A DNA stretch of 7,568 nt, from the IMG/VR virus record IMGVR_UViG_2671181118_000002. One strand, given 5' to 3'. The position numbers and the translations under genes were made by a program. This DNA is from a virus (lineage: Duplodnaviria > Heunggongvirae > Uroviricota > Caudoviricetes). Numbering within the stretch: position 1 is the first letter of the stretch; each line of letters begins with the position of its first letter. A model generated the notes under the pieces. The model was given only the letters and a program-made list of their open reading frames with translations. It was not told where the DNA came from and did not search any database. Shown one piece after another: positions 2,883-6,868 of the stretch.

Positions 2883-3308
2883 TTAGTGCATCACCACGGC
2901 ATTTCCTGCAGGGCCACCACGGTTCATCTGATTGAAACCGGCAATCGCCACTGCGACAAAATCATCAGCGTCTCTCACCAGTCGTTCCCGCGTCTCCACC
3001 AGCTCCCGAAAATAGGCTGAACTGTGGCTGCGCATTCGGGCCACCAGCAAAGGTGGCATTGCCTTTTCGATCGCTGGTAACAACGCCTGAATTTTTTCAA
3101 CAGCATCAGGGGTGTCTTTCTCTACCCAGCGGAAAATTTTCTGTGTATTGCGAGCCAGGGCTTCCGGATGGCTGTCGTCATACAGTTCAGGAAACGTTAT
3201 ACCCAACTCAAAATAAGCCTGGGTTATTCCAGCTGCTGGAACTTTTTCGCCATCAGGACGCGCCCAGGCATTCATCGCCATGCGGATGTGTTCATGCTTG
3301 ATTTTCAT
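2883..3308 (-). CDS. YdaT-like protein (prophage CII-analog family)
   Basis: Six-frame ORF. ATG at 3306-3308 preceded by AGGAG. Overlaps the end of the upstream cro-like gene by 17 nt. N-terminus MKIKHEHI and the position straight after a YdaS/DicC-like gene match the ydaS-ydaT arrangement of Rac-type prophages (recalled, not searched). Confidence 0.65.
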   Translation of the reverse strand: MKIKHEHIRMAMNAWARPDGEKVPAAGITQAYFELGITFPELYDDSHPEALARNTQKIFRWVEKDTPDAVEKIQALLPAIEKAMPPLLVARMRSHSSAYFRELVETRERLVRDADDFVAVAIAGFNQMNRGGPAGNAVVMH

Positions 3309-3573
3309 GAATCAAGCTCCTAGAAAGTGGTTGTGTTAACGTTTTGGTATCTTCCAGCTCGGGCCAAATATTCATCCAATCAAAAGGCCTTAGTTGCTGA
3401 CGTGTAACTTCACCATTACTGGCTCGCTCAATAAGGACACATAACGATGCCCCTAACACTTGACCTTTACTCAATGCCTTTCTTAGATAACCGATGCTGG
3501 TACCACACTCGCATGCAAACATACGCTGTTCATCTGACGAAAGAGAATTGAGAAATATTCTTAATTCTTCCAT
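3292..3573 (-). CDS. Cro-like HTH regulator of the YdaS/DicC family
   Basis: Six-frame ORF. ATG at 3571-3573 with AAGGAG 6 nt upstream. Divergent from the repressor gene. Contains an HTH-like segment (GTSIGYLRKALSKGQ) and the C-terminal motif GEVTRQQLRPFDWMNIWPEL, which I recall as typical of YdaS/DicC-type proteins. Confidence 0.75.
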   Translation of the reverse strand: MEELRIFLNSLSSDEQRMFACECGTSIGYLRKALSKGQVLGASLCVLIERASNGEVTRQQLRPFDWMNIWPELEDTKTLTQPLSRSLIHENQA

Positions 3574-3598: not shown

Positions 3599-3680
3599 AG
3601 AATACCCACAGGTAAACAAAAGTCAATACCCACAGGTTGTTTACCTTGCAGTAATCGCATCTATTATTTACCTATGGACA
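3599..3680. promoter_or_regulatory. Divergent promoter/operator region between the cro-like and repressor genes, with repeated TACC-N4-GGTA-type operator motifs
   Basis: Direct repeat AATACCCACAGGT at 3601-3613 and 3625-3637. 10-bp inverted repeat AGGTAAACAA (3611-3620) / TTGTTTACCT (3637-3646). Candidate leftward promoter on the minus strand: TTGACT (3621-3626), ~16-bp spacer, TATTCT (3599-3604). Candidate rightward promoter: TTTACC (3640-3645), 16-bp spacer, TATTAT (3662-3667), ending 6 nt before the repressor ATG, which suggests a leaderless mRNA. Confidence 0.5.
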
Positions 3681-4093
3681 AATATGAATTTAGACGACAG
3701 CAACTCATCAAAATTCGTGATGAGAAATGCGATGGTAAAGCGGTTAACGTGGCCAGAAAGATCGGGCGCGAGCCTTCTTATGTATCAAGAATGTTGTACC
3801 CAGAGGGGAAAAAGGGAAAAAAACGGATCGCTGATGATATGGTGGAGATTATCGAAGAGTCCTTTGGGTTACCCCGGGGATGGATGGATGGTATCGTTTC
3901 ATCATCAACGAACACAGCCTCCAGTTATGAAACAAGGGTTCTAACGCCACGACAACGTATTTTTTTAGATCTCTTAGACGAACTGCCAGAAAGTGAAGCG
4001 GATAACTTATTAAAAACTCTTGAAGAGAAAAAACAGTATTACAATATGATCTACGAAGAAATCCGTAAAAAGAAAGCACAAAACGCATCATAG
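3674..4093 (+). CDS. Prophage repressor (CI/DicA-like); the C-terminal region resembles DicA, the N-terminal DNA-binding region does not
   Basis: Six-frame ORF 139 aa, divergent from the cro-like gene. HTH-like segment AVNVARKIGREPSYVSRML. C-terminal LTPRQRIFLDLLDELPESEADNLLKTLEE resembles the DicA C-terminal pattern as I recall it. No Shine-Dalgarno upstream, consistent with a leaderless start. Confidence 0.7.
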   Translation: MDKYEFRRQQLIKIRDEKCDGKAVNVARKIGREPSYVSRMLYPEGKKGKKRIADDMVEIIEESFGLPRGWMDGIVSSSTNTASSYETRVLTPRQRIFLDLLDELPESEADNLLKTLEEKKQYYNMIYEEIRKKKAQNAS

Positions 4094-4135
4094 CTCACCA
4101 AACAACTAGTCACCAGTTAAGACACCGCAAAAAGT

Positions 4136-4176
4136 TACCCATGGGTATTTACTTTTTAAATACCTATGGGTATCCT
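4136..4176 (+). promoter_or_regulatory. Operator/promoter region upstream of the dicB-type operon: a perfect 12-bp palindrome and a near-copy of the same motif
   Basis: TACCCATGGGTA at 4136-4147 is its own reverse complement. TACCTATGGGTA at 4161-4172, 25 bp away. Same TACC-N4-GGTA motif as in the 3599-3680 region. Candidate -35 TTTACT (4148-4153) and -10 TATCCT (4171-4176). Confidence 0.45.
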
Positions 4177-4358
4177 TCTTTTCATACCAACCCACCCCGC
4201 CCCACAGAATGCAGGGCAATACTTCGAGTTACCAGGCAGTGGTCAGGGGTTAAGTAGCCAGCCCGAGGCGTAAGAACATGACGGCAGGGTTCAACTTTAA
4301 TAACTATGCAGCAGGTTTTTGTTCCGCTACCCCGGCGTTAAGGGGAAATGAGGTCAGC

Positions 4359-4514
4359 ATGGATACTATCGATCTTGGCAACAACGAATCTCTGGTGTAC
4401 GGCGTATTTCCAAACCAGGACGGCACGTTCACCGCAATGACGTATACCAAAAGCAAAACGTTTAAAACCGAAAATGGTGCCCGTCGCTGGCTGGAAAGAA
4501 ACTCAGGTGAGTGA
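4359..4514 (+). CDS. ydfA: YdfA-like small protein (51 aa), first gene of the dicB-type operon
   Basis: Within six-frame ORF 4278..4514. ATG at 4359-4361 preceded by GAGGT gives a 51-aa product (MDTIDLGNNESLVYGVFPNQDG...) matching the size and position of Qin ydfA. An upstream ATG at 4278 would give 78 aa. Confidence 0.65.
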   Translation: MDTIDLGNNESLVYGVFPNQDGTFTAMTYTKSKTFKTENGARRWLERNSGE

Positions 4515-4515
4515 T

Positions 4516-4644
4516 ATGGATTTCGACACAATCATGGAAAAGGCTTACGAAGAATACTTCGAAGGCCTTGCCGAAGGCGAAGAAGCTCTCAGCTTCAGTG
4601 AGTTTAAACAGGCGCTTTCCAGTTCGGCAAAATCTAACGGCTGA
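4516..4644 (+). CDS. ydfB: YdfB-like small protein (42 aa)
   Basis: Not in the ORF track (below its size cutoff); translated by hand. ATG at 4516-4518, 1 nt after the ydfA-like TGA, with AGGTGA upstream. Product MDFDTIMEKAYEEYFEGLAEGEEALSFSEFKQALSSSAKSNG; TGA at 4642-4644. Confidence 0.65.
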   Translation: MDFDTIMEKAYEEYFEGLAEGEEALSFSEFKQALSSSAKSNG

Positions 4645-4673
4645 TAAGCGAAACAGCACCGCGAGGAATCAGT

Positions 4674-4892
4674 ATGCAGAAACGAGAACCCGTCATCATC
4701 GCGCCAGACTATACCGATGATGAACTTTATGAGTGGATGCGCCAGAAAATTAATGCAGCGCAGGATCTGAAATGGGCTAATGAAGCCAGGGCTAAGCAGG
4801 CTGAAAATCTGTCCGCTCTGGAGCAGGATATCACCAGGCTGGAAAAAGCAGCGGCATTAAGCATTGCCAGAATGATTACATACCCGCGTTAA
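4674..4892 (+). CDS. ydfC: YdfC-like small protein (72 aa)
   Basis: Six-frame ORF. ATG at 4674 with GAGGAA and a 5-nt spacer. Size and position between ydfB-like and DicF match the Qin dicB operon. Confidence 0.65.
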   Translation: MQKREPVIIAPDYTDDELYEWMRQKINAAQDLKWANEARAKQAENLSALEQDITRLEKAAALSIARMITYPR

Positions 4893-5232
4893 TAGCTAAC
4901 CAACGAAGCTAAGGTTGGTAATTAAGGAGTTCTCCACGGGTGAGGTGGAGTGCGTGCGCCGGACACGGGTGAGCATCCGGCACTGACAGTTTACTGAAAG
5001 GATATTTCCATGAAAAGTCAGACCATAACGCGAAAGCGCACGGCGAGGTAGCTGGTTCATAGATAACCTGTCGTTAAATTTTCGTCGACCGTGCGCTTCC
5101 GGTTGTGGCACTCCGCGAAATGGCGCGGCGGTAAGTATGGCGGGGTTATTCCTTCCCCGTTGAGGACATCGGGTTGTCAGGTTGACCATACGCTTAAGTG
5201 ACAACCCCGCTGCAACGCCCTCTGTTATCAAT

Positions 5233-5285
5233 TTTCTGGTGACGTTTGGCGGTATCAGTTTTACTCCGTGGCTGCTCTGCCGCCC
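5233..5285 (+). ncRNA. dicF: DicF small regulatory RNA
   Basis: TTTCTGGTGACGTTTGGCGGTATCAGTTTTACTCCGTGGCTGCTCTGCCGCCC followed by TTTTT matches the DicF sequence as I recall it, possibly with one substitution. Lies between ydfC-like and dicB, as in the Qin prophage. Confidence 0.85.
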
Positions 5286-5290
5286 TTTTT
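5249..5290 (+). terminator. Intrinsic terminator-like 3' hairpin of DicF with T-run
   Basis: GGCGG (5249-5253) pairs with CCGCC (5280-5284) around an imperfect inner stem; TTTTT at 5286-5290. Confidence 0.5.
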
Positions 5291-5295
5291 AAAGT

Positions 5296-5442
5296 GAATT
5301 TTGTGATGCGGTGAATGCGGCTCAGCGCACGCGGAACAGTTAAAACCAAAAACAGTGTTATGGGTGGATTCTCTGTATCCGGCGTTAATTGTTAACTGGT
5401 TAACGTCACCTGGAGGCACCAGGCACCGCATCACAAAATTCA
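5296..5442 (+). repeat. 18-bp perfect long-range inverted repeat between the DicF 3' end and the dicB RBS; candidate RNase III processing stem
   Basis: GAATTTTGTGATGCGGTG at 5296-5313 and its exact reverse complement CACCGCATCACAAAATTC at 5425-5442. Confidence 0.5.
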
Positions 5443-5459
5443 TTGTTGAGGACGCGATA

Positions 5460-5648
5460 ATGGAAACGTTATTACCAAACGTTAATACGTCTGAAGGTTG
5501 TTTTGAAATTGGTGTCACTATCAGTAACCCTGTATTTACTGAAGATGCCATTAACAAGAGAAAACACGAACGGGAGTTATTAAATAAAATATGCATTCTT
5601 TCAATGCTGGCCCGTTTACGTCCGATACAAAAAGGATGCTGGCAATGA
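5460..5648 (+). CDS. dicB: DicB cell-division inhibitor (62 aa)
   Basis: Within six-frame ORF 5355..5648. ATG at 5460-5462 preceded by GAGGA gives METLLPNVNTSEGCFEIGVTISNPVFTEDAINKRKHERELLNKICILSMLARLRPIQKGCWQ, recognised as DicB. Directly downstream of DicF. Confidence 0.85.
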   Translation: METLLPNVNTSEGCFEIGVTISNPVFTEDAINKRKHERELLNKICILSMLARLRPIQKGCWQ

Positions 5649-5836
5649 ATACAGCATTTGCACTTGTTCTGACAGTTTTTCTTGTTTCCGGAGAGCCAGT
5701 TGATATTGCAGTCAGTGTTCACAGGACAATGCAGGAGTGTATGACTGCAGCAACCGAACAGAAAATTCCCGGTAACTGTTACCCGGTCGATAAAGTTATT
5801 CACCAGGATAATATCGAAATCCCGGCAGGTCTTTAA
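5645..5836 (+). CDS. ydfD: YdfD-like small membrane/lysis protein (63 aa)
   Basis: Within six-frame ORF 5591..5836. ATG at 5645-5647 overlaps the dicB TGA (ATGA). Product MNTAFALVLTVFLVSGEPVDIAVSVHRTMQECMTAATEQKIPGNCYPVDKVIHQDNIEIPAGL. Confidence 0.8.
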   Translation: MNTAFALVLTVFLVSGEPVDIAVSVHRTMQECMTAATEQKIPGNCYPVDKVIHQDNIEIPAGL

Positions 5837-5929: not shown

Positions 5930-6868
5930 ATGAGTAAAGTCTTTATTTGCGCCGCCATTCCTGACGAACTGGCAACAAGGGAAGAAGGCGCTGTGGCTGT
6001 AGCCACAGCTATTGAAGCTGGCGACGAACGCCGTGCTCGAGCAAAATTTCACTGGCAATTCCTGGAACATTATCCGGCTGCTCAGGACTGCGCTTATAAA
6101 TTTATTATCTGCGAGGATAAACCTGGCATACCCCGCCCTGCCCTCGATTCATGGGATGCTGAATATATGCAGGAAAACCGCTGGGATGAGGATTCTGCTT
6201 CTTTTGTCCCGGTTGAGACTGAATCCGATCTGATGAACGTCACTTTTGACAAGCTGGCCCCTGAAGTACAGAACGCTCTCATGGTTAAGTTCGACACATG
6301 TGAAAACATCACCGTTGATATGGTTATTAGCGCACAGGAATTGTTGCAGGAAGACATGGCAACATTCAACGGACATATCGTTGAAGCGTTGATGAAAATG
6401 CCAGAAGTTAACGCCATGTATCCGGAGCTTAAGCTGCATGCCATCGGGTGGGTTAAGCATAAATGTAAGCCTGGTGCCAAATGGCCCGAAATTCAGGCAG
6501 AGATGCGCATCTGGAAAAAACGTCGCGAAGGTGAACGCAAGGAAACCGGAAAATACACGTCTGTTGTTGATCTCGCCCGCGCCAGAAGGTCATTGCTGCC
6601 ATTCATCGCGAATACAAGCAGACATGGAAAACACTGGATGACGAACTGGCCTACGCTCTCTGGCCTGGTGATGTGGATGCCGGAAACATTGACGGCAGCA
6701 TCCATCGCTGGGCAAAAAATGAAGTTATCGACAACGACCGCGAAGACTGGAAGCGTATCTCGGCATCAATGCGCAAACAGCCTGATGCCCTTCGCTACGA
6801 CCGCCAGACTATTTTTGGCCTTGTCCGTGAACGTCCGATCGACATTCACAAAGACCCTGTGGCACTGA
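5930..6868 (+). CDS. ydfE: YdfE-like prophage protein; only the first ~215 codons look like genuine coding sequence, after which the frame appears shifted (possible pseudogene or fusion)
   Basis: Six-frame ORF. ATG at 5930 with GAGG upstream. Translation is protein-like up to ...VVDLARAR (~6585); the remainder is W/M/H/T-rich and unnatural, while the -1 frame becomes open and protein-like from 6571. Confidence 0.55.
   Translation: MSKVFICAAIPDELATREEGAVAVATAIEAGDERRARAKFHWQFLEHYPAAQDCAYKFIICEDKPGIPRPALDSWDAEYMQENRWDEDSASFVPVETESDLMNVTFDKLAPEVQNALMVKFDTCENITVDMVISAQELLQEDMATFNGHIVEALMKMPEVNAMYPELKLHAIGWVKHKCKPGAKWPEIQAEMRIWKKRREGERKETGKYTSVVDLARARRSLLPFIANTSRHGKHWMTNWPTLSGLVMWMPETLTAASIAGQKMKLSTTTAKTGSVSRHQCANSLMPFATTARLFLALSVNVRSTFTKTLWH

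Follow-up and report, generated by a model that had tools for sequence, protein, structure and literature searches.

Predicted early-left operators of an mEp043-related immunity type at the ydfABC-dicF-dicB operon of a Qin/Rac-like Escherichia coli prophage

Gene layout and predicted control elements of the prophage

The window analyzed here is the whole stretch of 7,568 nucleotides, and its features are collected in Table 1. The gene for a 139-aa repressor is followed on the same strand by ydfA, ydfB, ydfC, the DicF small RNA, and dicB, with ydfD and a RecE-like exonuclease gene to the right of dicB. A cro-like gene of the YdaS family and a ydaT-like gene are read in the opposite direction, and to the left of the latter lie a DnaD-like replication gene and a DUF977 gene. 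This layout is that of a lambdoid immunity region, in which the repressor gene is read toward the early-left operon as lambda cI is read toward PL. The gene order ydfABC-dicF-dicB, with a predicted promoter directly past the repressor gene, is that of the Qin-type operon. At 6587 the RecE-like gene has a 43-bp deletion when compared with its intact counterpart in a 99.6%-identical prophage (L128), and its open reading frame ends at 6868; the deletion shifts the frame, and the exonuclease gene is therefore a pseudogene and the prophage in the window is decayed. The stretch from the ydaT-like gene to the replication gene contains two small open reading frames, one at 2253–2648 on the plus strand (131 aa, PHROG 36733 of unknown function, with an N-terminal hydrophobic segment) and one at 2653–2874 on the minus strand (73 aa, hydrophobic). 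No genes are annotated at the equivalent position in the related prophages L001, L002, L003, and L128, and the pair looks like a moron insertion.

Table 1. Genes and predicted regulatory features of the window
Feature	Coordinates	Strand	Remarks
YdaT-family (CII-analogue) gene	2883–3308	-	PMC11879457 for role
Cro-like gene, YdaS family	3292–3573	-	73% identical to mEp043 Cro
PR-equivalent promoter (predicted)	3599–3626	-	TTGACT, 16 bp, TATTCT; into cro-like gene
OR1-equivalent (predicted)	3603–3614		TACCCACAGGTA; over spacer and -10 of cro-ward promoter
OR2-equivalent (predicted)	3627–3638		TACCCACAGGTT; between -35s of cro-ward and repressor promoters
PRM-equivalent promoter (predicted)	3640–3667	+	TTTACC, 16 bp, TATTAT; -35 overlapped by 3642 site
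OR3-equivalent (predicted)	3642–3653		TACCTTGCAGTA; over -35 and spacer of repressor promoter
Repressor gene, 139 aa	3674–4093	+	XRE-like HTH, mEp043 CI type (1–75); disordered linker; DicA-like helical C-terminal domain (89–134)
16-bp hairpin: two sites and palindromic spacer, then TCCTTCTTTT	4136–4172	+	Terminator scan; possible repressor-transcript terminator
Promoter-distal operator OL2 (predicted)	4136–4147		TACCCATGGGTA; perfect 12-bp palindrome; abuts -35 hexamer
-35 of early-left (dicBp/PL-equivalent) promoter (predicted)	4148–4153	+	TTTACT; register of relatives' TTGACA/TAGACA
Promoter-proximal operator OL1 by lambda convention (predicted)	4161–4172		TACCTATGGGTA; overlaps spacer and first two -10 bases
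-10 of early-left promoter (predicted)	4171–4176	+	TATCCT; 17 bp after -35; register of mEp043 TATATT
Transcription start (predicted) and mosaic junction	4183–4184	+	CATACCAACCC...; from 6–7 nt distance to -10
ydfA (DUF1391)	4359–4514	+	First gene of the putatively controlled operon
ydfB	4516–4644	+
ydfC	4674–4892	+
DicF sRNA	5234–5285	+	Rfam RF00039, 75 bits
dicB	5460–5648	+	Pfam DicB, E 1.7e-37

Past the repressor gene the window reads AAAAAGT, TACCCATGGGTA, TTTACTTTTTAAA, TACCTATGGGTA, and TCCTTCTTTTCATACC in that order. The first dyad starts 43 bp past the repressor stop codon (4091–4093), the second follows at 25 bp start to start with its symmetry broken at one central position, and 187 bp separate it from the annotated ydfA start. 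The original prediction, which had described a perfect palindrome and a second site 25 bp away between the repressor gene and a ydfA-like gene, proved exact on re-check in sequences, coordinates, spacing, and placement. With up to one mismatch to TACC-N4-GGTA allowed, the window contains seven matches against 1.43 expected, a count reached in 0 of 200 shuffles, and five of the seven (3603, 3627, 3642, 4136, and 4161) occur in the non-coding DNA on either side of the repressor gene. The downstream pair thus shares its consensus with the three sites of the divergent region, as in the OL-PL type of early-left control. The original prediction had proposed a motif search of the full prophage; in 41 kb of L128, a stretch covering most of that prophage and its flanks, only four exact matches occur (0.25 expected, 0 of 100 shuffles), all of them flanking the repressor gene. 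The TACC and GGTA half-sites are invariant across 81 loci of the same immunity type, with variation at the four central bases. A literature search for the TACC-N4-GGTA motif returned no paper.

Overlapping the downstream pair is a predicted sigma-70 promoter that is directed toward the early-left operon, with the repressor gene behind it; it was called from its register homology with the family loci described below. The TTTACT hexamer follows directly 3' of the GGTA of the first site and matches the consensus in four of six positions, and the -10 element reads TATCCT, TATTCT, TATGCT, or TATACT among the 81 same-type loci, varying only at position 4, which is the least constrained. A generic promoter scan did not report the two hexamers because they are weak, matching the consensus in 8 of 12 positions. 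The conserved 175-nt leader between the predicted start and ydfA (4183–4358) folds no better than shuffled sequences (z = +1.4) and has no Rfam match; because of this z value the idea of a put/nut-like structured leader was dropped. An Rfam E-value scan of 4090–4400 gave miRNA-hairpin hits on the palindrome only, and these are spurious. The leader is near-identical in the aligned LexA- and RacR-type prophages and shorter in K-12 Qin, and it contains an in-frame upstream ATG at 4278 that would lengthen ydfA by 27 codons.

In the divergent region between the repressor and cro-like genes the three sites lie at -71, -47, and -32 from the repressor ATG, and the center of the OR2-equivalent is 41.5 bp before this codon. 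The PR-equivalent promoter sits between and over the sites at 3627 and 3603. The -10 of the PRM-equivalent promoter ends 6 nt before the ATG, which suggests a leaderless repressor mRNA, as for lambda cI. The original prediction had extended the shared motif over 3599–3680, and this holds for the sites at 3603, 3627, and 3642 but not for a fourth, TACCTATGGACA at 3668–3679, which has two mismatches and overlaps the ATG and codons 1–2, a conserved stretch. A site with up to one mismatch is absent from the equivalent position in all wider-family loci, and TACCTATGGACA is probably not an operator. Within the immunity type of the window its sequence is invariant.

The repressor and the family of loci sharing its DNA-binding domain

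The 139-aa repressor gave no Pfam hit and no significant sequence hit in the PDB. In a protein search, residues 1–75 are 50–82% identical to the N-termini of many LexA/S24-family CI repressors of 221–242 aa from Salmonella, Klebsiella, Edwardsiella, Pantoea, Yersinia, and other genera. The N-terminus shares 65% identity over 86 residues with CI of phage mEp043 (76% over residues 1–72 by tblastn), and the segment REPSYVSRMLYPEGK is identical in the two proteins, which places the DNA-binding domain in the mEp043 type. The AlphaFold model (pLDDT 85) shows four N-terminal helices, with the HTH at residues 23–40, and a disordered linker that leads to a helical hairpin at the C-terminus (92–138). 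The S24 (LexA-like) autocleavage domain is absent, as indicated by the lack of a Pfam hit, by the helical hairpin of the model, and by an alignment in which the S24 part is replaced. In a pairwise comparison, residues 89–134 are 33% identical to residues 84–129 of DicA (E 1e-7). Assignment of the repressor as a DicA orthologue was rejected, since only this C-terminal segment aligns, the NCBIfam DicA model gives a partial hit of 23.9 bits against a cut-off of 101, and the DNA-binding domain belongs to another family. With an mEp043-CI-type DNA-binding domain joined to a DicA-type C-terminal domain, the repressor is, judged by its sequence, a domain chimera. The lack of an S24 domain together with the DicA-like C-terminus indicates that derepression is probably SOS-independent, through an antirepressor or a bistable flip, as for DicA. 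A tblastn search of the window and of the 41 kb of L128 found no homologue of the DicA antirepressor Rem.

The motif was followed in 44 loci: the window, two phages, and 41 loci encoding the domain that were found by scanning a single genome of each species. The 41 loci range from Enterobacterales to Aeromonas, Neisseria, Burkholderiales, Ferrovum, and Xanthomonas. We refer to the family as the mEp043-type CI immunity group, a name coined in this analysis; no published name was found, and the mEp043 papers that a literature search brought up deal with other topics. The 44 loci contain 128 exact sites in 265 kb compared with about 4 expected, a count that 0 of 100 shuffles reached. In the divergent region, 39 of the loci have a site near -72, 28 have one near -47, and 34 have one near -32. 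A downstream pair spaced 25–26 bp apart is present in 32 of the 44, at 43 to 2169 bp past the repressor gene; shuffling yielded no such pair from any locus. The family consensus is wTACC-YRYR-GGTAw. All 32 pairs share one register, in which a -35-like hexamer (mostly TTGACA or TAGACA) comes directly after the first-site GGTA and a -10-like hexamer (TATATT, TAATAT, TATGCT, and others) starts on the TA of the second-site GGTA after a spacer of 17–18 bp. In mEp043 itself, the cI-cro interval contains three motif sites, at -72, -47, and -32 relative to the cI start codon, and two more lie 25 bp apart ahead of the N gene; the sequence just 3' of this pair is presumably a lambda-like PL leader with nutL. 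The window has the same geometry, with a 1-bp difference at the outermost site.

The motif follows the DNA-binding domain of the repressor: six loci without a Cro homologue (L010, L012, and L014–L016 from Klebsiella and L038 from Orbus) all keep the motif, and the three most divergent repressors are without it. Five of the six also keep the downstream pair, the remaining one (L014) having a single downstream site. The same six loci are without the middle site of the divergent region as well as without a YdaS-type Cro, which implies that the switch partner has been exchanged.

Several further features were noted in the family. The three-site geometry of the divergent region is fixed to the base across Gamma- and Betaproteobacteria (L004–L046), where the middle site is centered near -42, as at lambda PRM, and a -10-like hexamer lies 6–7 nt before the ATG, implying that a leaderless repressor mRNA is conserved. 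A long-spaced dyad, TTACCTG-N10-CAGGTAA (TACC-N14-GGTA), is found past the repressor stop codon, at 3552–3575 in L004 and also in L017, L019, and L023. In mEp043 and several loci of the S24 type this dyad precedes the OL pair by about 20–45 bp, and it may be a third OL site with different half-site spacing; the window does not contain it. The most divergent homologues, from Advenella (L043 and L047, 35–38% identity), have no TACC-N4-GGTA and instead carry, about 40–65 bp before the repressor ATG, dyads ATACCGC...GCGGTAT and ATACCGT...ACGGTGT, which would fit a shifted specificity.

Immunity boundary, proposed mechanism, and alternative readings

By megablast, the whole 1.2-kb cassette is present in 822 of 5426 complete E. 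coli genomes (about 15%), and its flanks alone match in thousands of others. The right-hand flank match starts at query position 934–936, corresponding to window positions 4183–4185. Aligned with LexA- and RacR-type prophages, the window is unrelated up to the base before CATACCAACCC (CATACC, 4183) and near-identical after it; K-12 Qin, of the DicA type, realigns with the window only nearer ydfA. Each of these types carries its own dyads in both intergenic regions, GTAAC-N5-GTTAC in the LexA type, TTAGGC...GCCTAA around TTGACA-17-TATAGT in the RacR type, and TGTTAG...CTAACA around TTGACC-17-TAATCT in the DicA type. Homology with the other types thus begins just past the second site, and each type carries its own dyads at that place, as expected of immunity-specific operators. 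The position of the junction, 6–7 nt past the -10 and at the predicted +1, marks the promoter and operators as the immunity module and the transcribed region as the shared operon.

The two palindromes are very probably the early-left operators of a lambdoid, Qin/Rac-like E. coli prophage, OL2 at 4136–4147 and OL1 at 4161–4172, which would keep ydfABC-dicF-dicB off. The immunity type is related to that of phage mEp043, with an OL/PL arrangement like that of lambda and operators that are not known to have been described before. Dimers of the 139-aa repressor would bind each 12–14-bp dyad of the wTACC-YRYR-GGTAw consensus. Because the first site abuts the -35 and the second covers the spacer and the start of the -10, bound repressor would exclude RNA polymerase from the promoter, and the ydfA-ydfB-ydfC-DicF-dicB transcript, with its likely start at about 4183, would not be made. 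At 3603, 3627, and 3642 the same repressor would shut off the cro-like/ydaT operon and, like lambda CI at OR, regulate the leaderless promoter of its own gene. The 25-bp spacing suggests cooperativity between the sites of the pair, and the Cro-like protein may bind the same sites. The original prediction had held that one repressor controls both its own divergent promoter and the promoter of the DicF/DicB operon, following the logic of DicA and dicB with different operators. The comparative evidence favors each part: the motif lies on both flanks and tracks the DNA-binding domain over 44 loci, the pair brackets the predicted promoter in the register of mEp043 and 30 other loci, and the operon and the place of the predicted promoter are those of Qin, with TACC-N4-GGTA instead of TGTTAG...CTAACA.

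The 37-bp element could also, or instead, be an intrinsic terminator of the repressor transcript that blocks read-through into the toxic dicB operon, a reading we consider possible but on the unlikely side. A terminator scan calls a hairpin of 16 pairs with a 5-nt loop followed by the U-rich tail TCCTTCTTTT, and the RNA fold is stable (-24.1 kcal/mol, z = -5.3, with another estimate of -21.4 kcal/mol for the pair), so that part of the conservation could serve RNA structure. In S24-type relatives, whose OL pairs fold weakly (-6 to -17 kcal/mol), a separate GC-rich terminator follows the repressor stop codon ahead of the pair, whereas in the window type the 43 nt past the stop codon contain no other terminator, which makes a second role in terminating the repressor mRNA plausible. 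Most changes within the type preserve pairing through G-U, and in L088 the two centers, CACG and CGTG, are mutual reverse complements. However, two palindromic operator copies pair automatically, and covariation among 18 distinct variants is not above control (98.6% of cells paired compared with 98.2% after shuffling, with 78–100 of 500 shuffles doing as well). The U-tract has interruptions, with CCTTCCTTTC or GCTCCCTTTC in some variants, and the stem is rich in A and U. As the sole explanation, termination fails on the motif at OR, the family-wide promoter register, and the link between motif and DNA-binding domain. A broader scenario, somewhat more doubtful still, is that the S24-type terminator was lost and the OL pair with its now-palindromic spacer came to double as the repressor-mRNA terminator, acting as operator in DNA and as terminator in RNA so that dicB is blocked twice, with the chimeric repressor moving a formerly SOS-inducible immunity to DicA-style, SOS-independent control.

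Two further alternatives accept the dyads as operators but assign them another reader or a smaller set of transcripts. Cro and CI share operators in lambda-type switches, and the Cro-like protein, which is 73% identical to mEp043 Cro, co-occurs with the repressor and the motif in 34 of 43 loci, so that for most loci comparison alone cannot tell which protein reads the sites. That the functional reader here is the Cro-like protein and not the 139-aa repressor is nevertheless very improbable given the Cro-less Klebsiella and Orbus loci, which combine the CI-type domain with the motif, and given that a CI reader fits both the symmetry of the dyads and the recognition segment, identical to that of mEp043 CI, in the repressor domain. 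It is also improbable, if a little less so, that dicF and dicB are expressed mainly from another promoter farther downstream, leaving the sites in control of ydfA-proximal transcription only. The predicted promoter at 4148–4176 is indeed weak by consensus, and dicB lies 1.3 kb away with the DicF terminator in between; but the promoter scan found no other plus-strand promoter-like site within 4100–5700, and in K-12 Qin the polycistronic ydfA-to-dicF transcript starts at dicBp, with no other promoter found (PMC10448788). Chance occurrence in AT-rich intergenic DNA has nothing in its favor beyond the shortness of the motif, with its 8 specified bases. It carries next to no probability and is already refuted by the shuffles, none of which reached the counts in the window (0 of 200), in the 41 kb of L128 (0 of 100), or in the 44 loci (0 of 100), and by site positions that are fixed across more than 30 genera.

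Significance and comparison with known systems

Products of dicF/dicB-type operons stop cell division and alter phage sensitivity, and the immunity cassette described here stands beside such an operon in the approximately 15% of complete E. coli genomes noted above. The operator code wTACC-YRYR-GGTAw and the predicted promoter provide a handle for reporter fusions, and the code could predict homo-immunity with mEp043-like phages. It can also serve to annotate a CI DNA-binding domain that is widespread but covered by neither Pfam nor the PDB. In concept the locus adds nothing beyond the lambda/Qin paradigm; what the analysis yields besides is the operator code, as read from predicted sites, and the chimeric nature of the repressor.

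As at lambda OL1/OL2-PL, the repressor gene is transcribed toward the early-left promoter. With lambda and mEp043 the window shares two dyads about 24–25 bp apart, one by the -35 and one over the spacer and -10, as well as three further dyads between the repressor gene and cro. The likeness to mEp043 extends to the motif itself, to the spacings (25 and 15 bp at OR, 25 bp at OL), to the promoter register, and to the CI DNA-binding domain and Cro. In contrast to the window repressor with its DicA-like C-terminus, mEp043 CI has 228 aa, and full-length family relatives carry the S24 autocleavage domain (Pfam PF00717). Ahead of OL, mEp043 has a terminator of its own and one additional open reading frame, whereas OL follows the stop codon at 43 bp in the window. 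PL of mEp043 drives N; the predicted promoter of the window would drive ydfA-dicB, and the window contains no N gene.

The best structural match of the repressor model, heading a list of XRE-type repressors, is Rep of the Salmonella phage SPC32H (PDB 5d50/5d4z). The match is weak (E 1.7e-3, TM 0.46, sequence identity 16% for the top row and 23% for the next), and the likeness lies in a short XRE-type repressor without an S24 domain; Rep is inactivated by an antirepressor. The RacR-YdaS-YdaT region of Rac and CP-933P agrees with the window in gene order and roles, combining a short repressor with a divergent YdaS-type Cro and with YdaT; in Rac-type prophages the latter two proteins are treated as analogues of Cro and CII (PMC11879457). 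Where a RacR-type prophage has a ydfA-dicB operon, dyads TTAGGCATAGCCTA surround the promoter at the homologous position. The window repressor differs in having no significant similarity to RacR, and its operator motif is a different one.

The closest parallel in the controlled operon is Qin, where experiments established that dicBp is PL-like and repressed 22-fold by DicA, with operators in both intergenic regions (PMC10448788). Both prophages have the operon ydfA-ydfB-ydfC-dicF-dicB and a promoter directly after a short, non-S24 repressor gene, and in both a pair of dyads flanks the -35 and extends over the spacer and -10, those of K-12 reading TGTTAGCTATAGCATACA and TGTTAGTCATGGCTAATC around TTGACC-17-TAATCT. 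The C-terminal domains of the two repressors are homologous. The differences lie in the DNA-binding domain of the window repressor, which is unrelated to that of DicA, in operators that are not of the DicA type, in a YdaS-like Cro partner where Qin has DicC, and in a leader about 100 nt longer than that of K-12.
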